From the IMG/VR virus record IMGVR_UViG_3300020011_000226, positions 53,541 through 117,540 of that record: a stretch of 64,000 nt of DNA; one strand, given 5' to 3'. The stretch's first letter is position 1. Each line of letters opens with the position of its first letter. This stretch comes from a virus (taxonomy: Duplodnaviria > Caudoviricetes). The notes beneath the pieces are model-generated. The model was given only the letters and a program-made list of their open reading frames with translations, did no database searches and was not told the DNA's origin. Position numbers and translations under genes: made by a program. Positions 3,941-47,809 of this stretch are shown piece by piece.

Positions 3941-6900
3941 TTAACATACATCTACTACCTCGCCTTTATCATCCAATGTCTGCATTCTTTCTCCTCTACC
4001 AATTCTTTTTGCAAGATCATTGAGAATATCTACATTTTGACTATCAGAAGTGTCTTGCATCAGGGATTTAAAGTCCTGAGCACTAAAGCCCTGCATATCA
4101 TCCCGTGCAAAAACTTTCTCATTATCTTTTCGGAATTGCTTAAACATTCTTTCCCATTCTGTGTCAGTAAACATCTGAGATACATCAGTACCTATCTCAA
4201 TATGGGCTCCTTCAGGAGTGGCAGGGGCTTCGCCCTCAACAGCTTCATTGTTGGCAATGGAGTTATCAGTTACAGTTTCTTCTACTGAACGGAAGTTATT
4301 AAGACTGCCAGACCTCTGATAAGCTTCAAAGGCTGCATTACCAAAGTACTGGATATGCTGGCCCTTGATACCTTGTGCATGTACCAGTTTATAGGTCATA
4401 GTACCATCAGCAGAAGAAGTGACATTGAACCTGTCACCCCTTGAGTTAGCCATGTAGTAGACAGTGCTTCCATCCCTTTCCAATGCAATTACAGGTCTGA
4501 ACGCATTTTCACCCTTTGCCAAGGTGTCATCATAGATGGTAAAGAGGCTTGCCACATCTTTGCCTACAGACTTAAGGGAAATGGAGAATTCATTGTTCCA
4601 GTACTTTCCCTGCTCATTATAAGCCAGATTATTGACAGTGCTTCTTGCATTACCTTTGGGAGTAAATACAAATTTCTTATTATCCAGATGATTCAGAATA
4701 TACTGCTTGGCAAAGCTTATCAGGTCATTGCTATCCATGCTAACATTGCCATCAATCACATCGTTGATGAAATCTATATAACCTTCTTCAGTAGAGTTGT
4801 TATTAACTCTAAGACCAAGCTTCAATAAAGTAGGAGCAAGACTCATGGAAGATGTAGGATGGAAATTATAGCCAAGCTTATAGAAATTGTAGAAATACAA
4901 ATCTTCAGCCAGCTGTTTGACAGGAATATCAACCTGAAGGAAGTTACTATGAACTATCTCATCAGAATTATAAGCCTGCGCCCATGCTTCAGTAATTAGG
5001 TTGGATGTCCTTGTTTGAAGGCCTCCCATACCTTGTACTGAAATCTGTAGAGGATTAGTCTCTGCATCAGCATCTGCATCTCCTGTGATAGTCAGTGCAT
5101 CAAAGAAAGGTATGTGCGAAAGTACCCCCTCTGCCTTGAGAGCATGGAGTAGCATAGGATAGTGTTGGGTATAATACTGGCGGTTAGTGATATTACCAGT
5201 CGGATCTACAAATAGATTGGCAGTCTCACCATCAAATGAACTTCCCCGTTGTTTTGATAACAAATAAAGAATGAACTCCCTATGTAGAGAATTGACTGTA
5301 TCAGCATCCAAGCCACCATACTTAGTCAGCCTACGCATAATATTTCTCATGTTGCTGTACAACTGGGTATAGTAGGGGAAATGCTTCTTAAAGAGGCTCC
5401 TTGTGGTCTTTCTTGACAAGTCCATCATACATTGCTCAAAAGCCAGAGGATTCCTTGACATCTGAGACATATATTCCTCAGGAGTCAAGTCTAATAGCTC
5501 CTCGTCAATATTAAGAATGCCTTGATTATTCTCAGATACTGCCTCTTCTCCTGCATGAAGAACTCTGTTGCTTCTTGCTTCAGAAGGGTCAAAGAGCTGA
5601 AAGGCAAGTCTTCTTGGATCTACAGGCCCTGTAGGCTCTTTCATGTATTTCTCAATAAAAGTCCTTACTCTCTCTTCTTGTGCCAGCTGTTCTCCCCATG
5701 TAGAGCCTACAGAATTGGCAGCAGTAAATCTGGTACACTGCACAAAGCTGTTCACATCAGCAGTATCTGCCATCAACTCATTGAAAAGCCACAACACCTG
5801 AAGCTGTCCTTGCTTAAACTCTTGAGGCATATTACTCTTATCGATGGTTCTGTCAGTAAGGATGTTATCTGCCAGCTTATCAGAGGTGGCATTGATAGCA
5901 TCATACTTAATGTTCTCCAACTGCATTCTGCTGCCTCCATACCTTTTCAGCATTTCAGCTATGGCCACATCGGTAGAAACACTCTCATTGGCTATATAGT
6001 TACACAGTTCCTTGATGATAGGCTGATTGAACAGTAGGCCAATCTCTTGGGGAGTATATCCTATTCTTGCCAACAGTGCTCCTGCATCAGCAGTTGTCAA
6101 GTTGAGGTTTAGGAAGTTCAGCACAGGGTCTTTCACAGCATCTACAGAAGCAGCCAAGTATTCAGCTACATTAGTATCTACATCTATACCCTCAGGAGCA
6201 TGAAGCATATCAAACAAGCCTCTTGCACTATGGTTACCAAACTTAATAGGATCTCTCAATGATAACTCATGGAGAGTAGAAGCATACACGTGGTTGGTGT
6301 TTTGGTTGGCAAAGATACCAATCAACTTACCTGCCACCTGATTCTGCTGATTATACACCAAGATGGCAGTTGGGTCAGAGACATCATACTCAGGCTCAGG
6401 GTCTTTCCTTTCACCTCTGTTAATGCTCTCCACATAACTGTCTACCTTTGACCAGTCAATCTTACCATTGGTAGTGATGTCTTCTTTGTCAGCAAACTGA
6501 AGGACTCTCATTCTCAAGGCTGCATCCCTGTTAGATTCAAATCCACCAGGAGTATAGCGAGCTTTCAAGGTTTCCTTATCCATCAATCTTTGTCTGATAA
6601 GGTCTATCAGCATATTGTTTCTGGCTACACGGGAGTTACCTTTAGTAACCACCTCACCATTTTTCCCTATCACAGGGTTCAGTGGTGAAGCCTCTGGGTT
6701 ATAGGTGTCAAATACAGGATACTTATCTCTATGGTCTTCCAGATATTTGGTAAATGCCTCTTCTGGAGTTCCTTCAAGACCTGCTGATTCCCAGTAATAG
6801 TACAACCTGTCCTTATGCTTGGTCTGCTTATTCAGCTCACCCAGTCCAGAGAAGTCATCCTTGAATCCTGTTGCCAAGACATCCATTAGCTTTAAACCTA

Positions 6901-9900: not shown

Positions 9901-11665
9901 TTTCATAGCTAACATCTTTGCTTCTTAAAGACTCAAGAGCATTATCATATTCCTCTCTGGCTTCTACTGTAAAACCAGCATTGACAGAGGGCCTGATGCC
10001 CTGATATTTTTCAATAACTTCCAAAGCATTTCTAATATCTCCTTTATATGCATTTCTTGTTTCAGTCCTAAACTCCTGTAAAGCTGTCAGGTAAGCTTTC
10101 CTCAAGCTGGCATTATTGTAGATCCTGCGAGCAGCCTTGTCAGTCATAGGAATGCCTAAGGCTCTGGCAGACCTCTTCATGAAGTCTATACGCTGAGGAA
10201 AAGACACTTGATAAAAACCTGCAAATTGCTGGTTATTGAACAAGTTGTTTCTGTTCTCTTCATTAGGAACAGTTAACAGACCCTTATTTTCAACATTCCA
10301 TTGAGCCAGTTTCTCCCAATCGACTTTTCCTTGCTCATCATAGATAGAACTACTTCTATCAAGAGCCTGATGCAGCTGCATCCTCAATACAAACTCATCA
10401 TGCAAAGGGTTGGCCTGTCTATTGAGTATCTTAGCATATATATTACCTGCCTTAGTCTTAAGCAATGCAGAATAAGGAACCATGTTCTTATGCATGTCAA
10501 TAAGCAGCTGAGTCAAGATAACAGGGTTCTTAGGCTTGTTGCTATTATCTATAGACTTACTTAAATCTGCCTGAGAAGCTTTTGCTAATGCATCAAACAC
10601 AGCTTTTACCTTAGGGTCAGAGTCTGACAAACTCTTTAGTTTTCTGACCATACTGCTCTCAGAGGTAATACCACGCAGAATATCAGATAGATACTGATGA
10701 GTTTCTACTGGATCCATCTTAATAAGATAGCCTAAGTCATCAGTCATCCTCTCTCCAGCTTCATCTACATCTGTAATAGTAGAAAGAAATCTCCTGACCT
10801 CAGAACCCAAGGAACCAAAAGCTGAGGTTTCTGACTGATGGGTCATCCAAGCCTCACGGACTGACTCTTCCAGATTGTAGGTATCCTCCAAGGGAGAGTC
10901 CATAGAGAAGTTATCGGGGGAAGTAGGAGCAGCATACTCCAAAGTATTAACCCCCAACTTCACACTCTCCACATCCCGTAAAGACATTCTGGCGAAAGTA
11001 CACAAAGCAGACCAGTTCTGAAGAATCTTAGGATACTCCCGAACAATCATCCTTGCCCTTTCTACATCAGCCTTATCAGCTTCATCAAGACCATTTAGCT
11101 CATCTTCGGAAAGTCCTTCTACCTCTTCCATAATAGCTCTTGCCTCATTGAATCTGCCTACAAACTTGTCAAAGATAGACTCAAAGATACTAAGCTGACC
11201 TTCATGGTACTGTCCATTTCGCTTATAGCCATTAACTACCTGTTCTCTTGTCAAAGAGATACCAGCTTTCTTAGCAGCTGCCATTCTACGGCTTACCTCA
11301 TTGGTAAATTCAGAGGCAACCATATTGATTCTATTTCTACGAGTAGTCTCATTCCATCCTGGAACATGGTATAACTGATTAAAAGTGCCTGCCATATGAT
11401 TGGTAGAGCTTCTCATTTCCTGAAGATGCCTTTCAGCCTGCTTATGCTTATAGTCCATCAGTTGAGTAGCTACATTGGCAAGTTCAAGTCCTTGGATAGT
11501 CTTATCATCTACAAGAGGATCAATAAGAGGTTTTGCATTATCCATGTCATAAAGACCTCTTAGAGTGCCAATATCTTCTTTGGTAAGACCTTCTCCAAGA
11601 AACTGTGCAATCCTATCATCAATGCCTCCAGCTGGAGATATGTGGCATATAATCTGCTTGCTCAT
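3941..11665 (-). CDS. Virion-packaged single-chain two-barrel DNA-dependent RNA polymerase (crAss-like)
   Basis: 2574 aa. It has YRIPT followed by the catalytic GFDFDIDKL motif (~7031-7057), typical of crAss-like virion RNAPs. Confidence 0.92.
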   Translation of the reverse strand: MSKQIICHISPAGGIDDRIAQFLGEGLTKEDIGTLRGLYDMDNAKPLIDPLVDDKTIQGLELANVATQLMDYKHKQAERHLQEMRSSTNHMAGTFNQLYHVPGWNETTRRNRINMVASEFTNEVSRRMAAAKKAGISLTREQVVNGYKRNGQYHEGQLSIFESIFDKFVGRFNEARAIMEEVEGLSEDELNGLDEADKADVERARMIVREYPKILQNWSALCTFARMSLRDVESVKLGVNTLEYAAPTSPDNFSMDSPLEDTYNLEESVREAWMTHQSETSAFGSLGSEVRRFLSTITDVDEAGERMTDDLGYLIKMDPVETHQYLSDILRGITSESSMVRKLKSLSDSDPKVKAVFDALAKASQADLSKSIDNSNKPKNPVILTQLLIDMHKNMVPYSALLKTKAGNIYAKILNRQANPLHDEFVLRMQLHQALDRSSSIYDEQGKVDWEKLAQWNVENKGLLTVPNEENRNNLFNNQQFAGFYQVSFPQRIDFMKRSARALGIPMTDKAARRIYNNASLRKAYLTALQEFRTETRNAYKGDIRNALEVIEKYQGIRPSVNAGFTVEAREEYDNALESLRSKDVSYENFRAKKYGKNQDKSRGAGNDRIIKMLDALASVDSRLKTERRVSWFDRKGKANSRYSDRTPSYMGDMVDKIHEFVNEGDAEGLKSFIMDKWGQSSFFYDKAEGRFLNKWLQEMYDSIRTDSKGNVIIDFDALAKVFEFDEFLGSNIDKQVAIFENFTEKQHAEAMMKQFVQLLDQSHGKSRLAKYPCFILGDSGAQMFFTAKRYSKAEIMEGMKDVFRQEIERMKYVKATNEVLEKGGFKTIDNFSQTADEFTMMKFLNPNFVDGKYWKILTGNQQMTDAEMKVMSREEAIDAARDALGTDALTDAIQTYMDDSKADFMEKLANAGVIERVKGEGGVITYTDPKGYFGQNVKWFNNSIDSLVDDFFWNTKYATIQQLQLFTVDPAFYDHRYPVKDLQKRYKEIYAPGKGVSAEARDFDGNLYSNRSYEKVVYFDDIAVSSEDVNPLFFQLLQKTFGDNSPVVKAYKENTLTDGQGYRSLSSYRAVKGMAGEWTRPMEEAYKRIMNIRNNGQPLTEADIQEIAQLAVIFQPIKPYLYSLEKLKINDEGDMALIPVQHKYAEVVLIPELMMEGKLKDMAVWMENNDIDLVASTKCVKVGAFGSSDLKGANTTETINAALDKAYVHNLPWSDYRIQSGVPEHLNHAQLFGTQIRKLILAGINKSHNYDYLSNILGKSEDALGPTVYLPGMGKVHLSGRNLVSLYNCLVMGNLFDSYNRFATETATNQKLSDKMIQNIVSNANQSEDNAFGFSIIEDGENKGQFVVPLGEPGLEHDATALLFSLFKKGVNKQKIKGGSAVQASALGLSGYEESGDLFEVVSPEGDNVLYDEIEMPWNLSYTSATGKNVGLRFEDWCNPDGTLKMSDQIVYGDDAKEYLSWPVSGRDKYGRAIDPEQGYYVPLIETKYKGILDIIAYRIPTERDYSMVNAKVFRFSNPLAGGTLKVPSSRTTTAGFDFDIDKLYFFMREFAQTHLSDKDIENIWNSIYEMHPQWKEALREARDNDQLGLKLMDVLATGFKDDFSGLGELNKQTKHKDRLYYYWESAGLEGTPEEAFTKYLEDHRDKYPVFDTYNPEASPLNPVIGKNGEVVTKGNSRVARNNMLIDLIRQRLMDKETLKARYTPGGFESNRDAALRMRVLQFADKEDITTNGKIDWSKVDSYVESINRGERKDPEPEYDVSDPTAILVYNQQNQVAGKLIGIFANQNTNHVYASTLHELSLRDPIKFGNHSARGLFDMLHAPEGIDVDTNVAEYLAASVDAVKDPVLNFLNLNLTTADAGALLARIGYTPQEIGLLFNQPIIKELCNYIANESVSTDVAIAEMLKRYGGSRMQLENIKYDAINATSDKLADNILTDRTIDKSNMPQEFKQGQLQVLWLFNELMADTADVNSFVQCTRFTAANSVGSTWGEQLAQEERVRTFIEKYMKEPTGPVDPRRLAFQLFDPSEARSNRVLHAGEEAVSENNQGILNIDEELLDLTPEEYMSQMSRNPLAFEQCMMDLSRKTTRSLFKKHFPYYTQLYSNMRNIMRRLTKYGGLDADTVNSLHREFILYLLSKQRGSSFDGETANLFVDPTGNITNRQYYTQHYPMLLHALKAEGVLSHIPFFDALTITGDADADAETNPLQISVQGMGGLQTRTSNLITEAWAQAYNSDEIVHSNFLQVDIPVKQLAEDLYFYNFYKLGYNFHPTSSMSLAPTLLKLGLRVNNNSTEEGYIDFINDVIDGNVSMDSNDLISFAKQYILNHLDNKKFVFTPKGNARSTVNNLAYNEQGKYWNNEFSISLKSVGKDVASLFTIYDDTLAKGENAFRPVIALERDGSTVYYMANSRGDRFNVTSSADGTMTYKLVHAQGIKGQHIQYFGNAAFEAYQRSGSLNNFRSVEETVTDNSIANNEAVEGEAPATPEGAHIEIGTDVSQMFTDTEWERMFKQFRKDNEKVFARDDMQGFSAQDFKSLMQDTSDSQNVDILNDLAKRIGRGERMQTLDDKGEVVDVC

Positions 11666-11690
11666 TATATCACTTATTAAAATTCTTAGG

Positions 11691-11698
11691 CAAAGGTA
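11691..11698 (-). promoter_or_regulatory. Bacteroidota -7 promoter element (TACCTTTG) for the RNAP/cargo operon
   Basis: Matches TAnnTTTG, ~26 nt upstream of the RNAP ATG. Confidence 0.7.
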
Positions 11699-11818
11699 CT
11701 ATAATTACTTGGGAGTTATGCAAGTTTAAATAAAACCTTAACCTACTTTAAAGGGTTGTTAAGAAAAGAAAAGGGAAACAGCATTGCCATTCCCTCTTGA
11801 TAGCTTTTTGATGTTTGT

Positions 11819-12091
11819 TTACCTGTCTGTGGTTGCTTCATTATGTTTATCTGGGACTTGTATTTTGGTAATATCCCAATGACCCCCTCCACCTCTAAAT
11901 GATGTGTCATGTACACTGAAAAATATATTTTCTTCTGGACAATAAACAAACCAAGTTTCATCTCTACAGTAATCGGTATCACCTCTGGCAAGAATATAAT
12001 CTAATTCAACACAATTATAGCGTTTTCCTTCGTATATAACATCCATCTTATTCTCACCCAATCGAAAAAAATCATTTTTTGGTTTTTCCAT
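11819..12091 (-). CDS. Hypothetical protein
   Basis: 90 aa ORF abutting the upstream gene. Confidence 0.6.
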   Translation of the reverse strand: MEKPKNDFFRLGENKMDVIYEGKRYNCVELDYILARGDTDYCRDETWFVYCPEENIFFSVHDTSFRGGGGHWDITKIQVPDKHNEATTDR

Positions 12092-12664
12092 TTATTCTTC
12101 TATCTCAAATTCATGGACATAAATAAAGTTTTCATCATCAGTACCAGAGTCTTCATAGTCAGAGTTGAACTTCTCCACATCCTCCTTAGACTTCACTCTG
12201 CCATAAGTCAGTTTGGCAAGCCACTCATAGACCTGTTCTTCAGTTTTAAAGTATTCAGAGTTGTAGATGTCATCAATAGCAGTATCTACCCAGTATCTAT
12301 CATGGAAGTATTTTCCTTCCTTGTCATTAGTACAGTAGATTTCCATATCAGACTCCTCTACAACCCAATATACCTTGATGTCAAGGAACTGTTTCTCCAG
12401 AAGCTCCGCAAAGTCCTGTAAGCCCCATCTTTCCTCAGACCAGAACCTTAAAGCCCCAGTCTTCTCATCCCATGTAGGCTCTTCCTCTATTTCACCTCCA
12501 AGCCTTGTGCCATCAGTGATAGGGAGTTTCAGATACTCTGCTGCCTGATACATCTCATACCTTTTATCATCGCTGTTGACTGCTACTATAAGGGCTTCTG
12601 CTATCTTCTTCAGGGATTCCTCAGAGCCTTCAATGGCATAAGCCACACTTGCCATATTTGCCAT
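12092..12664 (-). CDS. Hypothetical phage protein
   Basis: 190 aa acidic ORF, tightly packed in the operon. Confidence 0.75.
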   Translation of the reverse strand: MANMASVAYAIEGSEESLKKIAEALIVAVNSDDKRYEMYQAAEYLKLPITDGTRLGGEIEEEPTWDEKTGALRFWSEERWGLQDFAELLEKQFLDIKVYWVVEESDMEIYCTNDKEGKYFHDRYWVDTAIDDIYNSEYFKTEEQVYEWLAKLTYGRVKSKEDVEKFNSDYEDSGTDDENFIYVHEFEIEE

Positions 12665-12971: not shown

Positions 12972-13310
12972 TTATCCATGTTGATCTCTTTTAGGGTTAG
13001 GGTATGCTTTCAGGAAATCATCAACTGTCTCAAAGAACTCTCTTTCCTTGGAGAAATAGTCGTCCCAGGTTAGCCACACTTTGATTCTCTCTTCTGGACT
13101 GAGCTTATTTATCTCTTCTCCATCAGTTTTATCAGTACCCCCCACACCATGAATATCTCTATAGAAATGCTCATCGGGGTGATAGACAAGCCATACAGAG
13201 TCTTTAAACTTAGCACATGCACAGACATAGTATCCTGCATCCTCCAGTTTCTTTCTAATTTCTGGAGAGTTCTGTTTGATAAATACTGTCTTGCTCATGG
13301 TTGTGTGCAA
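12972..13310 (-). CDS. Hypothetical protein
   Basis: ORF packed in the minus-strand operon. Confidence 0.65.
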   Translation of the reverse strand: MHTTMSKTVFIKQNSPEIRKKLEDAGYYVCACAKFKDSVWLVYHPDEHFYRDIHGVGGTDKTDGEEINKLSPEERIKVWLTWDDYFSKEREFFETVDDFLKAYPNPKRDQHG

Positions 13311-40093: not shown

Positions 40094-43000
40094 CTACACC
40101 CTCACCCCTTCTCTTTCAGCTTCTAATGCAAGTCCTTTCTCTATCAGTCCTCTATAATCAATATGATGTTCATTAAGCCAATCCAGTAATTTGGAACAAC
40201 TTTCTTCTCCAACAAAGACCGATTCATTTTTATCCCATTTTCTACTATCGGATATTATACCACCGTTGAAAATCTGAAAAAATCCTTCAAATTTATTTTC
40301 AAAATCTTTTTTCTCTTCTTCAGTAATGGAATCTATAGAGCGAAGGTATGGGACGGCACGATACTTTATGATACTATAAATTATACTCTGCGTCAAAGTC
40401 ATAGAGGTTCTACCATCTAATTCAAAATCATTTCCTACCTCTTGATTTTTCATTACTACTCCGTAAGGCAATCTAGCACAAAGATCCCTTAATAGAAGTT
40501 CCTTATCTTCTTGTGTCATAACTTTCTAATATCTTTTTTATTGTTTTTATAATATTCAATTAACCAATCAAGGTAATCAAGTCTTCCTGTAGACCAATCA
40601 CCTACTGGCCACCAATAACAAGATTCGTGATTATTATACGCTCCAAAATCAAAGACTTTTCTTCCACCAAATAATGGAAAATAATACTGAATAAATTCAA
40701 TAGAAGGATAAAGACCAGTCAATGGGCGTAAAGTACAAGCAATAGCATTACATAGACACTTATATCTACTATGATTTTCCCTTACAGCCATAAGTACATC
40801 AACCCTATAAATAGGTCGATGGAAAAGCTTCTTGAGTTTTAATTTTGTTGTTGCTTTCATAACTATTTCCTATACTTTTTATGATAATAACAATCAATCA
40901 TAATAAATGCAATCAAGAGTCCCCAATTAAACACTGGAGAAAAGAGTAAAAACAAGAAAAGCCAATCAGTAAAATCTATTCTATTACCTTTATAATAAGT
41001 CCACACTATAATAATTACAGTAGGCAATAACAATAATATTAACCATAATATTGTCATAACTATTCTTTTTATAGTCTATCAAAATCTTCTATTGTTGGTA
41101 TTTCTGGACGTTTCATTTCATCTACAAAGAAAAGAATTATTCCACAAATAAATGTTACCATTATAATAATAAATGTTTTCATAACTATTTCTTTTTAAAT
41201 ATTACTACTGAATCAACTGGAACATTACCCTCATAGGTAATTTTTAGTTCTGTCTTGCCTTGATATACATCAAGAGCTGTAGGAGTGGTTATAACTGTAT
41301 ATAATAACCACATCGACAATATAAATATGCCGATAAATATACTATTGAGTATTTTTATAGCCTTTTTTCCCATAATCTTATTCTCCTTTCATTTCTTTAC
41401 GATAATATTCTATAATTTCATCAACTTTAACTGTAAATTGCATTCCTGCTTTATCAGTATAAGTCTTAGCAGTACAAATGTTTTCTTTTAGCCACTTACA
41501 AGTTTCTTCAATCACTTCTTCTTTTACAATCTTAGCAACTTCTCTTACGTTATCAGGAGTGAGCCAAGGTTCAAAACCATAAATGTTCGCAGTAAGTGAT
41601 TTTGAGAGGTTACTACCACTCTTTGCATGTTGCTTAATAAATTCTTCTGCTTTGCTCATAGTTGTATTATTTACCCTCTTCTTTAGTACCGTATATTGTG
41701 AAACGAAGCTTATACCTACAGTCTGGGCAAATACACCGTCCACCAAGATTATAAGATTCTCTACTGTTAAAAGGCTTATTGCATTGATGGCAAATTATTC
41801 TATATTTAAGTGGTATTTTTTTATTCATAACTATTTTTTCTTAATATAGTTGTTTTTTAACAACCAAATAACCATTTCATAAGCTGCCTCTATGAGATTA
41901 TCGTAGTATTGTGTAGCATGAGCATACGTGTCAAATTGATAACCATCCCAATGTCTTAATATAGGATATTCTTTTGGATAATCTTTATATTTAATCATAG
42001 GCATAGCATCAATAAGAGCTCCGACAGACCAACAAGGGAGATAATCAAACACACGTTCCTCACCTCTTTCTGCTAAATCATCTTTAATAAAAGGAGACCC
42101 CAGAACAGTACTTCCATCATCCCTATGTAACAAATATTCCATATCAGCAGTATTAGGGTCAAGACCCAACTCTAATAATTTCTTGGACTGTTCTATAGAC
42201 GTATAATATTTCATAATGATTCTCCTTTTAATTCTCTAACTTTAGCTTCAAATAGTGCTCTTACAATAGTTCCCTTTCCCAGTGCTGCTATAAGAGGTTC
42301 AAACTCTTTAAGCATAGCATAAGCACCATCTTCAAAATTTGTTTGTAATCTACATGCTTTAGCGGCATTAATTGCTGCCATTTCTTTTATAGTCATAGTT
42401 ACTCTCCTTTAAGTTGTTGTTCTTTCTGCCACCGAGCACCTGCCTTGAAAGCAATAGCAATATCATCTTCCCAGTCATCACCGCCATTGCCGTTATCATT
42501 TGATGTGTAGTCGGTGGCATACTGCCTTGATACTTCCTCCAAGTTCTCACTTGCAGGCTCTTCGGGAAGAGAATTGATGAATCTTAAAATATCATCTAAT
42601 GCCATATCTTGCCCACATTTAACATCTAATTCATATTGAGCATAGTCTTTGTCATCAGATGGCTTATAGACTTTTTTCAGCCTTGCAATCTCAACTAAAA
42701 TCTTATCTTTAATATTCATAGTTACTCTCCTTTAAGTTGTTTTAAATCATTATAAAGAGATTTCAACAATTTGTTATGAGGATAATATTCTTGTACAAAC
42801 ATACCCAATGCTTCAACTTGTTCTTCACTTGGTTTCCAATGAGACTGAGGACGAAGGGATTTGAGCCAATCAACGCACCTATCTCTGTCAATTTGCACAC
42901 AAAATCCTGCACGTAAAGCACTATCTATAATATCCTTAGATAGTCTGATACATTTCTCATCCTCTTCACTCCATTCAGCAGACTTCTGTTCAAACATTCT

Positions 43001-44760
43001 ACGAAAGCTGTTATCTTGAAGATTCTTTTTAATTTGCTCTTTATCCACAACTTTCTTCAATTCTTTATTATCAGTATCCCATCTTCGTACATATTTTGAA
43101 ATTTTTGGAAGATATGTATTAAGAAAATCAATAATATTAACTCCAGTAGCTTTACCATTTTCTAAAATTTTGTAAGGAAATAATAAACCCTCAGAAACTC
43201 CATCTTTAAGTTCACTTATTTCTTTATAACCTTCCTTACGTTTGGCATTTATTCTACTTTGAAGTTCGTTAACATTCTTCTTAGTGATAGTAATATGCTT
43301 TGTATGAAGATTTCTTCCAACAAGACCATATTGAATATCTATATATTTTATAGGGCCATCAGGAGAATCTTGACTTATAATTTCTTTAGCAGACCATACG
43401 AGAGGTTTGTCATTACTAGACCTTTTATAAAGTGTTATCATAATTCTATTATATTTAAAATAATACTTTTATCATTTTCTGCCTTAAAACATTCAAAAGC
43501 TCCTTTTTTAGAAAAAGATTAATAATACGTATTACCGTATTTATTCGGAGGAATAAAATATACTATTATATATTCATTCATATTCTTTCTAATTTAATTT
43601 CAACTTTAATAGGCTCATCTCTATAACAAAGATTTTTAAATTCAGGAAATTCTTCATCTTTAAGTTCCATGTAATCCTCACTCATCCAAACTTTAAGCCT
43701 ATCATTATTTTCTGGAATATCTCTATGAAACCAAAGAGAACCATCTGCATCTCTAGCTACATATCCAATCATAACTTACTCTTTCTTTAATTTTTTACAT
43801 TCATTATAATAACCAATACTAACTTTAGGATTATCTTCACATTCTTCACAAAGAAAAGAATCGCGAAGAGGAACATTATACTTTTTACATTTCATGATTT
43901 AATCTTTAAAACCTCTGTCATCTATAATATCTAATTCTTTTAATAAAATATTATAAGACTTATCAGATAATTTACTGCCATAAATACCATCTCTTATATC
44001 AGCGTTAGTCCAAATATAATGAGAAGACTTTTCATCACTTATTAAAGCTATATTATGAATAGGAATAATAGTTCCATTTTCACTTCTAATACATTTAATT
44101 TTATCCATGATTTAATCTTTCTTAGGAGGTTTAATTTTAAAAGCTCATCCTCACTCTCTGCAAGTTGTTGAAATACAGCAAGTAGATATGATTTTCCAAT
44201 AGAACTTGCATTAGGATTATTATGCCATTCTTTTGCTCTTTCAAGAGCTTTGTCATAAGCTTTTGCTTTTTGCTCTGTTGTAAGTTCTTTCATAATTGTT
44301 TATTATTTATCTAAGTCGATAACTTTTTTATCCCAATGATATTTTAAGAAATACTCCAAGTGAATAAACCTACCCATAATTATTGGTTCTTCGCTGTAAG
44401 ACCAATCCATAGTCATAAGTGTTTCTCCACTTTCCGTGTCAATGATTGCATATATAAAGCATAATTCGCCATTGTTCATGTCCAACAACTTTTGTAGGTC
44501 TTTGGATTTATATAAAGTCATGCAATGGTTTTTACCATGTGAAGCATCAAAAAGAAACGCTTTTGCTTTTTCTTTATCCATAATCACAACATTTTACGTT
44601 CGTGTAATTTTAGTACCATCTCATAGCAAGCATCAATAGGGTTGCTTGTCTTAAATATTTCAGTACTTAGACTTTCTCTTGCGCCTACATAATACCTATC
44701 AGCATAATACATGATGCCGTACTTTTTATAAGCTTTCTTACGTAGTTTCTTTAATAATTT
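40094..44760 (-). other. AT-rich cluster of small accessory phage genes (e.g. 40094-40519, 40516-40860, 41831-42214, 42399-42719, 42722-43441, 43578-43772, 44303-44587)
   Basis: Densely packed short minus-strand ORFs of types common in Bacteroidota phages; visibly higher AT than the replication block. Confidence 0.7.
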
Positions 44761-44784
44761 TGTTTATTAAAGATGAAATAAAAA

Positions 44785-45438
44785 AGGATGCGGCAGACCT
44801 CTGACCTTATTGGAACTCTTGCAAGGTAGCATTTTACTAAGGCTCAGCATCTTATGCTGGGGTTTTCAACATGCTAAATTCCAATTTTTACGGTTTCTTC
44901 TGTAAGGGCAGATAGTAAGCAGAAATACCACGTCTGGTTATGCTCCAGCCATGCAAGATACATGCGCTGTTTTAACTATTGCCATCTTTGGTCTCACAAG
45001 AAAACAATCTTCAACAACCCAAATTACCAATTGCTGATAAAGTGCTCCGTTTTTCCATTGTATTCACCATTTACTATCTGTGGAACTCTTTGGAATTACC
45101 CACATACCCTCATGGATATAGCACTTAAAATGTTTTCTCTCGGTTAAAAGTCTCTATACCTTATTGTTTCAGTACGACTACTTACTTTTCTCGGAAAATG
45201 GCTCAACATTGAGAATACTCAAAGTCCACGTTCCTACTTAATGTTTTTCTACTATCCTTCTCTTTGTAAGTGAAAGACTTTTTCCCGATTTTAGAAGATT
45301 CACAAGAAGTATCGTCTGGAGGATGTCTTTACATGCATCAATATAGGCTATTTGCCACCTCCTCCGTCCTTTAGCATCTGCAACTCTTCTTGCTTTTTCC
45401 GACACAGGATTTCTGCCTGTGCCATATTACCGCATCCT
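44785..45438 (-). ncRNA. Large ornate structured RNA (~654 nt), ROOL-like candidate
   Basis: No credible ORF. An 11-bp terminal helix AGGAUGCGGUA/UGCCGCAUCCU is followed by a U-run. Many nested helices and two perfect pseudoknot pairings. Confidence 0.75.
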
Positions 45439-45449
45439 ATATGAAAATC

Positions 45450-45460
45450 TTTCAAAGAAC
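45450..45460 (-). promoter_or_regulatory. boxA-like antitermination element (GTTCTTTGAAA)
   Basis: Matches an rRNA-leader-type boxA; 12 nt upstream of the large RNA. Confidence 0.5.
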
Positions 45461-45461
45461 T

Positions 45462-45695
45462 CTATGTACTGAATAGATCAAGGACATCTTGTTGTGTGTA
45501 TTCTCCATCATCAGGATGGTGGAAGCCTTTACTGAAGACTATTTCCTGTTGTACTGGCTGGATGTTTTGGGGTATCTGCTGTATTGCCCTTCCCTCAAAG
45601 AACCCTCTAAGCACTTCAAACAGGTCAGTATGCCAGCTGATGTGATTGTCCTTGATATATTGTACTAACTCTCCATACTCAATCATCTTCATCAC
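45462..45695 (-). CDS. Hypothetical protein
   Basis: 77 aa ORF ending right before the boxA. Confidence 0.6.
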   Translation of the reverse strand: MMKMIEYGELVQYIKDNHISWHTDLFEVLRGFFEGRAIQQIPQNIQPVQQEIVFSKGFHHPDDGEYTQQDVLDLFST

Positions 45696-46114
45696 CTGAT
45701 ATACGGTTAATGATGTATTGCTGTACTCCTACTACAAACAGGAAAATGAGAGCTGTGACTATAAATGCTATTATCATTGCTTTGTATAATATTTGTCATA
45801 ATTATTGTATTTTATCTCTCCCTTACAGAAGAAACAATGAGCAACCAGTTGGGAGTTTGCTGGAGTAGGTGAGGAGAGTGGGTTGATAATACTCTGGCTC
45901 TTGAGCTGTTCTCTCACCAATCTGCGCATAATTGGGTTTAACTTTGCATTAAAAGCTATGAAGCTCCTGCTGTTTCTTTTCAAGTCCTCTTTAATATCAA
46001 GGACTGCTTGCTGTTGTGCTGTCATAATGTCTATTGTTTTTAGGATGAATGATTTCTTGTAATTCCTTGTACACATCTGTATAGTTGATTTCCATACTTT
46101 ACACAGTATATCAC

Positions 46115-47119
46115 TTAGACTTTTTTCTTGTTTGTAGAAGCATAAAAAGGAACAACTCTGCAAGCGTAGAGCTTGCTGTCCTGATAACAGTTCGTTTTTC
46201 CCCCGCACAGGCTACAGTTCCATGAGGTGCTAGAGTTGTACTCAGAGCAAGACCAGTACCAACCTTCAGCATTAATAATGAAACCAAGACCGGTTATCAT
46301 GTGTGCAGCATTGAGATATACTGCATTGTCTAACATAGTCATGTTCTCACCAAGGCTACCAAAGTACCAATTTTCCTTCTTATCCTTGCGATAGTTGATA
46401 CACTTTTCAAAGGCAGCAAGCCTCTCTTTGTCATTACCATCAATCCGCTTCTGATACTGGGCAGTAACCTCTCTACCATTAAACAACTTCATGGCTTTCT
46501 CCTGTGATGTATATTCTCCAATCCTAGAGTCATACTTAATGTTCCAGTTCTCTCTGAACATTTCCAAGGCACAGACAATAGGACTTCCATCTTCATAGAA
46601 TCCACATACTATATCTCTTACTTTGGTCTTGGCAATCTTCTTGGTAGGATGAACAAAGGAATCATCAGTCATTTGGTAATCACCAATACGCACACCATTC
46701 TTTTCAGGAGCATCTTCCAATATCTCCTTAAAGAACTGAATGTCAACTGATTCGTTGCTGCCTCTTTTTTCAGTGATAAGCATCTGCTTAGCAGCTATCT
46801 CAGTACCAAATGGGTTCATCCAGTACTCAGTTCCCGCAGGAATAATAGCTTTAGCACAATAGTTGCCATAGCCACCACCCTCGCTCAGCTTAGCATGGAT
46901 TACTCCGCCTTTTATGATAGATATTTCTCTGTCATAGAGGTCTTTGCCCAAATGACTAATGTGGGGGGTTTTAGGCTGTGCAACCATCAACTCACCCAAT
47001 GTGACAGGTGTTCCCAGACATGGGCTTGAGTATCTTTCACCTTCTTTCCGTAGATACTTCAATACCACAATGTCCCTCTTGGCAACTTGTGGCTTCCTGT
47101 TTATAATGTATAAACACAT
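46115..47119 (-). CDS. Protein with C-terminal C-type-lectin (DUF1566-like) domain
   Basis: WYFGSLGE...WYWSCSEYNSSTSW...RVVPF. Confidence 0.75.
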   Translation of the reverse strand: MCLYIINRKPQVAKRDIVVLKYLRKEGERYSSPCLGTPVTLGELMVAQPKTPHISHLGKDLYDREISIIKGGVIHAKLSEGGGYGNYCAKAIIPAGTEYWMNPFGTEIAAKQMLITEKRGSNESVDIQFFKEILEDAPEKNGVRIGDYQMTDDSFVHPTKKIAKTKVRDIVCGFYEDGSPIVCALEMFRENWNIKYDSRIGEYTSQEKAMKLFNGREVTAQYQKRIDGNDKERLAAFEKCINYRKDKKENWYFGSLGENMTMLDNAVYLNAAHMITGLGFIINAEGWYWSCSEYNSSTSWNCSLCGGKTNCYQDSKLYACRVVPFYASTNKKKV

Positions 47120-47254
47120 AAGCGACTAAAATTATTTGTTTTGTTTAAGAAGTATTTTGATATATCTAAGGGCAATAAAAAGAGAGGAAGAAGAGGCTAT
47201 TATAACCTCAACTCCCCCCTATAACAAACACTTTAAATAACATGAAAATGTTTG

Positions 47255-47329
47255 TGAGCCTGAGGGGACTCCAACCCCTAACCGTGATTTTAGAGGAATC
47301 ATGCTCTAATGCAGTTGAGCTACAGGCCC
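47255..47329 (-). tRNA. tRNA-Arg(TCT), atypical (C33, C19-G56)
   Basis: Acceptor GGGCCTG/CAGGCTC; D arm GCTC/GAGC; anticodon arm TGATT-CCTCTAA-AATCA; T arm AGGGG-TTGGAGT-CCCCT. Confidence 0.8.
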
Positions 47330-47341
47330 TAATGTTTAGTT

Positions 47342-47809
47342 TCATATATATCGTTTATAATTTGCAACAACATTACTATTTATTGCTTGTTGTATTTGTG
47401 GTGTTAATCCATTTGTCTGAATATATCTATATAGTTTACCTCTACATGTATTACAGCAACAAGTACAATGATATTTGGATGGCTTTTGAAGGTGTGTTAA
47501 ATTTGTATATTTAACAAATTCCTTTTTACACCAAGGACATATTAACTTTATTACTTTTCTACTATGTTCAAGACTATGTAATTTTATATGTGCAATTCTA
47601 TTTATTAACTCTAAATTTTCTATAGAATTATTCTTTTTGCTGTGGTCTTTATGATGAACTACTTCTTCATCAGTTAATAATCTGCCTAAATAATTCTCCA
47701 TAACAATTCTATGCATAAGCACATAATGATTTTTTGTTGCCTTTGGGTGCTCTGGTACTACAGCATAGATATAATCTCCTTTACTTACTGTCTTCTGAAT
47801 ATTCCACAT
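47342..47809 (-). CDS. HNH homing endonuclease
   Basis: HRIVME..LGR.L...EVVHHKD..K.NN...NL plus a C-terminal Zn finger; AT-rich; has its own TAATTTTG promoter at 47829-47836. Confidence 0.88.
   Translation of the reverse strand: MWNIQKTVSKGDYIYAVVPEHPKATKNHYVLMHRIVMENYLGRLLTDEEVVHHKDHSKKNNSIENLELINRIAHIKLHSLEHSRKVIKLICPWCKKEFVKYTNLTHLQKPSKYHCTCCCNTCRGKLYRYIQTNGLTPQIQQAINSNVVANYKRYI

Follow-up and report, generated by a model that had tools for sequence, protein, structure and literature searches.

What occupies a gap of about 750 nt in a phage genome that is otherwise tightly packed? The window, by which we mean the whole stretch of 64,000 nt of DNA analysed here, is the final 64 kb of a 117,540-bp IMG/VR virus record. 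From 1 to 50 kb nearly all of its genes lie on the minus strand, and between a 77-aa open reading frame (ORF) and a 42-aa ORF about 750 nt hold no believable ORF. A preliminary description had placed in positions 44785 to 45438 an ornate, pseudoknotted non-coding RNA of the ROOL/GOLLD kind or of a new class, bounded by a terminal helix and a U-run and carried by a crAss-like phage.

A non-coding stretch in a crAss-like phage

The portal protein of the phage is ~54% identical to those of the uncultured crAss-like phages cr126_1, cr116_1, cr128_1 and IAS virus, which bears out the proposed affiliation. A DNA polymerase, a primase, helicases and ORFs of over 1300 and 2574 aa are also encoded.

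The stretch is truly non-coding, as had been proposed. Specifically, TAA, TAG and TGA each occur in all six frames of positions 44713-45461, so that no stop-codon recoding opens it. Log-odds of codon usage, with the long genes of the phage itself as training set, range from −0.14 to +0.09 in the frames of the region, compared with 0.34 ± 0.15 for true frames and −0.15 ± 0.13 for wrong frames, and a 55-aa ORF placed inside the stretch by the JGI caller has a codon score of 0.06. The small ORFs inside the stretch have no PHROG match, and tblastx of the stretch against related phages returned nothing.

The boxA block and the closing helix

The syntenic locus of a related phage, L002 (helicase 75% identical), has the order tRNA-Arg, 83-aa gene, small ORF and a unit like the one described here. 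The only block common to the window and L002 is 26 nt long and lies at the 5′ edge of the stretch (AGAGTTCTTTGA.AG.TTT.CATATA, 45463-45438 on the minus strand), where it overlaps the TAG stop (45464-45462) of the upstream 77-aa ORF. A scan of collections with this block returned a few phage contigs and one bacterial match, a Prevotella MAG, in which 25 of the 26 bases are as in the window and the block lies 205 nt upstream of a 16S rRNA gene. Among 121 genomes of the host family, 16 carry the block in rrn leaders, in 1-5 copies each and mostly at contig ends; its distance to the 16S 5′ end, where that end falls within the fetched locus, is 130-205 nt. Most host copies consist of a TAnnTTTG promoter box, 40-60 nt, and then AAGAAA-GAGTTC[T/A]TTGA[A/T]AGAyTTACATAgAC. 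A reversed-pattern control on the 121 genomes found almost nothing, and apart from a few 2-mismatch matches elsewhere, the block occurs in rrn leaders and a few phages.

The core of the block, GTTCTTTGAAA, fits GYTCTTTAANA at 10 of 11 positions, this being the gamma-proteobacterial boxA consensus (PMC5725501). Judged by sequence, the block is the boxA of a Prevotella/Bacteroidaceae rrn leader, in the sense orientation of the transcript and of the flanking genes, and its near-identity to Prevotella-type leaders provides a host clue for an uncultured phage. The block occurs once in the phage genome, whereas the short core by itself is found at chance frequency; a second boxA-like match at 13027-13040 was rejected, being inside a coding region. 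Against annotated GenBank phages the block gave no significant match. Shortly upstream of the boxA of the window there is no boxB-like hairpin or promoter, which counts against an rRNA-operon-style arrangement; upstream of the boxA, L002 has a promoter, and L060, a locus in an unrelated phage, has a promoter and a boxB-like hairpin. An early-promoter motif proposed elsewhere in the genome (CATAGAGG-N10-...) was rejected for the site at 45466, which fits only CATAGAG.

Directly after the boxA block, at the base following ...CATAT, begins the helix that closes the stretch. On the plus strand 10 of its 11 positions pair, with one C-A mismatch, while on the minus strand all 11 pair, one of them as G-U. 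In addition, a U-run follows the helix on the minus strand only (44784-44776, TTTTTATTT), there being none after 45438 on the plus strand. The G-U pairing and the location of the U-run indicate that the RNA, if any, is a minus-strand RNA, like the flanking genes. The preliminary description had named no strand and had overlooked the rRNA-leader boxA directly upstream of its terminal helix. That helix stands, and the U-run proposed to follow it holds for the minus strand but not for the plus strand.

A closing helix of at least 10 bp starts at the corresponding base in the window, in L002 and in L060, so that boxA and helix keep the same placement in three phage lineages (Table 1). The arms of the window helix differ from those of L002 and L060 on both strands and are still complementary. 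Between L060 and L002 the helix differs by two G-U wobbles, valid only on this strand; with these two G-U pairs, the L060 helix has 7 further pairs inward. When the boxA register dictated the 5′ arm and 5000 shuffled downstream sequences per phage served as targets, an equally good complement was found in 2 of 5000 shuffles for the window, 1 of 5000 for L002 and 68 of 5000 for L060. A tRNA-Gln(TTG) gene comes after the closing helix in L002 (2205-2276, 95 nt on) and in L060 (4782-4853, 6 nt on); in the window no tRNA lies directly behind the helix. The bodies of L002 and L060 have a ~170-nt 3′ domain in common, and a search with the 3′ motif CTTGCAAGAATCTCYGAAAG recovered the known units together with matches that read as coding sequence. 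Some relatives do not have the stretch: in L004 there is no gap at this place.

The same geometry is seen in a complete host rrn operon from Bacteroidaceae (L100): here the leader segment adjoining boxA forms a duplex with the 16S trailer (RNAduplex −45.9 kcal/mol), in agreement with what has been published on boxA, boxC and the leader-trailer helix (PMC10250234). The E. coli 16S leader-trailer helix is essential for 30S biogenesis, and its 5′ strand, with boxC in it, is located 18-19 nt past boxA; the antitermination complex has been proposed to retain the leader at the exit channel for RNA while the trailer is still to emerge (PMC10250234). The phage helix has 11 bp, as against 25-40 bp in the rrn operons of Enterobacteriaceae (PMC10250234), a difference that counts against an rRNA-operon-style reading.

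Table 1. Positions of features at the locus (window coordinates) and arms of the closing helices in the three phage lineages
Feature	Position	Strand	Sequence	Remarks
tRNA-Arg(TCT)	47254..47329	(-)		1.8 kb upstream in the same orientation; a syntenic tRNA-Arg precedes the L002 unit
Upstream 77-aa ORF	45462..45695	(-)		no family
boxA block	45438..45463	(-)	AGAGTTCTTTGAAAGATTTTCATATA	by sequence a copy of the host rRNA-operon leader; 25/26 bases as in the Prevotella MAG
boxA core	45460-45450	(-)	GTTCTTTGAAA	
5′ arm of leader-trailer (closing) helix	45428..45438	(-)	AGGAUGCGGUA	starts 11 nt after boxA core
Untranslated RNA body	44796..45427	(-)		632 nt; no recognisable family
Second X2 piece	45234-45271	(-)		looser similarity beyond
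Core in RNA run X2	45017..45160	(-)		~93% identical; 181-nt contig, 10 differences in 144 nt
3′ arm of closing helix	44785..44795	(-)	UGCCGCAUCCU	
U-run	44776..44784	(-)	UUUUUAUUU	directly after 3′ arm; U5AU3; terminator-like with closing helix
Downstream 42-aa ORF	44584..44712	(-)		start 63 nt past U-run; no promoter box of its own
Closing helix, window			AGGAUGCGGUA / UGCCGCAUCCU	654 nt enclosed
Closing helix, L002 (identical in L058 and L061)			AAAGUGGCAC / GUGCCACUUU	504 nt enclosed
Closing helix, L060/L059 (unrelated phage)			AAAGUGGUGC / GUGCCACUUU	214 nt enclosed

Folding and relatives of the RNA body

All eleven complementary pairs listed in the preliminary description are present, ten of them as perfect Watson-Crick helices. 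Against 120 dinucleotide shuffles the 654-nt RNA folds with z = −3.2 on the plus strand and −3.5 on the minus strand, none of the 120 shuffles being as good; twelve coding control windows gave z values of +1.3 to −2.2 in the same kind of comparison. When natural 654-nt windows of the genome (n = 716) serve as the reference and composition is regressed out, the RNA comes 66th (z = −1.3). The stability expected from the preliminary description is thus found relative to shuffles but not relative to natural windows, and this ordinary folding energy counts against the rRNA-operon-style reading. Windows shifted by 100-220 nt off the chosen ends have no folding excess, indicating that much of the gain is due to the terminal helix at those ends. 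Local 150-nt windows are unremarkable, like the flanks.

The internal helices are real but are roughly what an AT-rich window gives, not clearly above chance. In particular, perfect inverted repeats of 7 and 8 nt number 28 and 11, within the top 13% and 9% of genome windows, a typical genome window has ~70 complementary 6-mer pairs, and complementary 6-10-mers are about equally frequent in other windows of the genome. Eight of the ten nested helices fit the minus-strand thermodynamic ensemble with pair probabilities of 0.65-1.0. The two crossing pairings proposed as pseudoknots found no support, and the ornate fold as a whole has the z scores against shuffles as its one positive argument, its internal helices being near the chance level of the genome by both inverted repeats and natural windows. 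As a separate observation, positions 44893-44908 in the body and 45820-45835 in the 83-aa gene (codons for CFFCKG) form a perfect 16-nt reverse complement, through which the RNA body may pair with the mRNA of that gene; with E ~0.04 within the window, this match may also be due to chance.

Membership in the ROOL or GOLLD families was not borne out. Rfam 15 searched over the whole window gave nothing at gathering scores, and between 44300 and 45900 there was no match at E <= 10 to ROOL (RF03087), GOLLD (RF01183), OLE, HEARO, introns, RNase P or tmRNA. Likewise, neither Rfam nor ARAGORN found a group I or II intron, RNase P, tmRNA, tRNA, OLE or HEARO in the stretch. A RAGATH-9 match (22.5 bits against a cut-off of 75.2, E = 0.37) was discarded as noise, similar matches being present in control genomes.

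Searches for homologues of the body found none in GenBank phages and INPHARED (blastn), none in IMG/VR, JGI metagenomes and GTDB genomes when exact 19-22-mers from the conserved core were used, and none by nhmmer, blastn and tblastx in related phages, whose loci and complete records had been identified by way of the helicase and the 83-aa neighbour. The bodies of L002 and L060 have no significant similarity to that of the window. A JGI contig of the same strain, L042, is identical to the window across the RNA; the body is known from this one phage lineage, with nothing similar in related phages, and a body that is not conserved could be a spacer.

One public gut metatranscriptome, X2, contains a relative of the RNA (Table 1). 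The run is represented by contigs only, which report presence in an RNA library and not ends, strand or level, and at 80% likeness none of its contigs matches the flanking genes. We take the X2 relative as a faint indication that the RNA is expressed and has a conserved core. Two X2 substitutions fall inside the 10-bp pseudoknot arm at 45071-45080, the partner arm lying outside the X2 coverage. Among the six X2 differences listed there is no compensatory pair, and two of them break predicted pairs, which counts against the rRNA-operon-style reading.

Interpretation of the locus

The reading that we prefer, and to which we give slightly better than even chances, is that of an rRNA-operon-style cassette on the minus strand, made up of boxA, a closing helix, ~630 nt of untranslated RNA and a U-run, and yielding a discrete RNA. 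The stretch is probably made as a discrete non-coding RNA, and transcription probably enters through the upstream 77-aa ORF; the minus strand has no TAnnTTTG promoter box from 45440 to 47800. Host RNA polymerase would enter from the upstream genes and transcribe a boxA nearly identical to that of the host rrn leader. By analogy with rrn operons, the boxA RNA would recruit NusB/NusE together with NusA, NusG and SuhB, and the polymerase would then resist Rho-dependent termination across the ~650 nt of untranslated RNA. If the published model of rrnTAC applies here, the 5′ end would be kept near the RNA exit channel, which may help the ends to pair. The 11 nt that start 11 nt past the boxA core could then pair with the last 11 nt of the unit, immediately before the U-run. 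The helix would close the RNA and would probably serve as a terminator, a processing site or both, leaving a discrete RNA of ~650 nt. What has been shown is the identity and place of boxA, the helix with its placement in three lineages and the non-coding body; Nus factor use, protection from Rho, processing and any function of the body are inferred. As no separate promoter serves the downstream genes, the polymerase must read through the U-run at least partly.

The closest counterpart of such a cassette is the bacterial rrn leader (boxA, boxB, boxC and the 16S leader-trailer helix, with NusA, NusB, NusE/S10, NusG and SuhB). The phage boxA is near-identical to that of the host family, a long-range helix a few bases past boxA closes an untranslated RNA, and in the sister cassettes tRNAs lie behind the helix as they do behind 16S in rrn operons. 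Unlike an rrn operon, the phage unit encloses a ~630-nt RNA in place of 16S rRNA, its shorter helix is followed by a U-run, and in the window no promoter or boxB hairpin directly precedes it. BoxA elements upstream of CRISPR arrays shield long untranslated transcripts from Rho. In E. coli, Rho termination triggered by a non-coding insert of 567 bp is relieved by an rrn boxA (PMC4807359), and that reporter resembles the phage unit in having boxA before a long untranslated transcript. Both the reporter and the CRISPR arrays are cellular loci for which no enclosing helix has been described, unlike the phage unit.

A serious though unlikely possibility is that the boxA acts as a lambda nut-like site or polarity suppressor for the genes from 44712 leftward, the 650 nt being an untranslated leader or spacer. 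The downstream genes without a promoter box of their own, the position of boxA in L002 and L060 just after a host-type promoter and at the head of a gene block, and the lack of conservation of the body between phages all speak for this. Such a role, however, needs no helix linking the nucleotide next to boxA with a site 200-650 nt further downstream, and the maintenance of that helix in three lineages with different sequences argues, if not decisively, against it; moreover, a U-run or a tRNA comes after the helix, and a 650-nt spacer is costly in so compact a genome. The lambda nutL and nutR sites (boxA and boxB, with protein N) are similar in that a phage-borne boxA would, by analogy, recruit host Nus factors, whereas the window has no adjoining boxB hairpin or known N-like protein, its boxA is of the host rrn type, and it has the closing helix that lambda nut sites lack. 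We consider it highly improbable that the stretch is a decayed gene or junk spacer with helices due to chance and a boxA block left over from captured host rrn DNA. In its favour are the lack of homologues of the body, the lower number of stops in one minus-strand frame (10 versus 15 and 21 in the other two) and two short peptide motifs that this frame has in common with an L002 ORF, but this peptide similarity is insignificant (E = 0.08) and is equalled by matches in other frames, all frames are non-coding by codon usage, and tblastx is empty. In addition, a boxA block kept at 25 of 26 bases, with a helix register conserved across lineages, argues for selection.

A large, ornate, pseudoknotted RNA of the ROOL/GOLLD kind, or a new class of comparable tertiary complexity, appears improbable. 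Its size of hundreds of nucleotides, its phage setting and the tRNAs that adjoin the sister cassettes are shared with ROOL (RF03087) and GOLLD (RF01183), and the closing helix, the z scores against shuffles and the agreement of eight of ten nested helices with the minus-strand ensemble are in its favour. Unlike those families, the stretch has no covariance-model match and no sign of a conserved complex fold, and it is known from one phage lineage; the internal helix count near genome chance level, the unremarkable local windows, the X2 substitutions inside a proposed pseudoknot arm and the unrelated sister bodies, ranging from 214 to 654 nt, weigh against this proposal. The chances of a DNA-level element, either a replication origin or a small mobile element with terminal inverted repeats, seem to us almost negligible. 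Inverted repeats at both ends and the absence of the stretch from relatives such as L004 would suit it, but there is no AT-rich dip, no iterons, no target-site duplication at the ends and no other copy in the genome or the collections, and the G-U pairs complete the helix only as a minus-strand RNA.

If the rRNA-operon-style cassette is real, a crAss-like phage, from a group that is very abundant among gut viruses, employs the host's signals for rRNA transcription and folding for a long RNA of its own, which would explain how 650 untranslated bases are transcribed without Rho cutting the transcript short. A host-type boxA with a closing helix offers a sequence handle for phage non-coding RNA genes missed by covariance-model libraries, and the RNA body, known from one lineage only, may be a new functional RNA. 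A broader proposal, speculative and in our view rather unlikely, is that Bacteroidota phages, including crAss-like phages, carry host rrn boxA and a leader-trailer helix as a portable frame for different large RNAs. On this proposal the body in the window would be a new folded RNA with high expression, owing both its synthesis and its folding to the rRNA transcription machinery of the host; during infection it would act on the host, perhaps as a decoy or scaffold.

Several further features were recorded around the locus. On the plus strand, a Bacteroidota −7-type box (TAATTTTG, 44755-44762) lies 23 nt before 44785 and points into the ORF-free stretch; it may drive an antisense transcript, and with a frequency of about once per 1.75 kb it may also be a chance occurrence. 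Between the U-run and the next gene, positions 44748-44773 hold a perfect 10-bp inverted repeat of A and U only (TCTTTAATAA / TTATTAAAGA). Upstream, the 77-aa protein found no relative besides itself in a homologue search, and the 144-aa ORF at 45774-46208 (minus strand) probably represents an 83-aa gene with its start at 46025, conservation in L002, L004 and nine database relatives being confined to residues 62-144. This 83-aa gene is shared at 60% identity by L052 (3665-4825), L053 and L054, where an RVT_1 reverse transcriptase lies just upstream and a Band_7 gene downstream. The 334-aa gene at 46115-47119 has no counterpart at the corresponding place in L002, and a link to a reverse transcriptase was rejected, as this neighbour is not a reverse transcriptase and the genome has none. 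An HNH endonuclease gene (47342-47809, minus strand) adjoins tRNA-Arg(TCT). The same-strain contig L042, with 3 mismatches in 5 kb, does not have ~180 nt present at ~41157-41337 of the window.

A further boxA cassette was seen in three IMG/VR phages (L101, ~11630-12200 on the minus strand; L102; and L103, 12100-12700). In order, it consists of a tRNA-like 3′ domain that ARAGORN does not call, the boxA block and a conserved RNA of ~330 nt, and a protein gene comes next. L103 also has an Rfam RT-3 RNA match at 4865-4984 (50.4 bits, cut-off 40.5). The ~330-nt RNA has no Rfam match, and it shows a compensatory change, CGGGG..CCCCG in L101 and L102 being replaced by CGGAG..CTCCG in L103.
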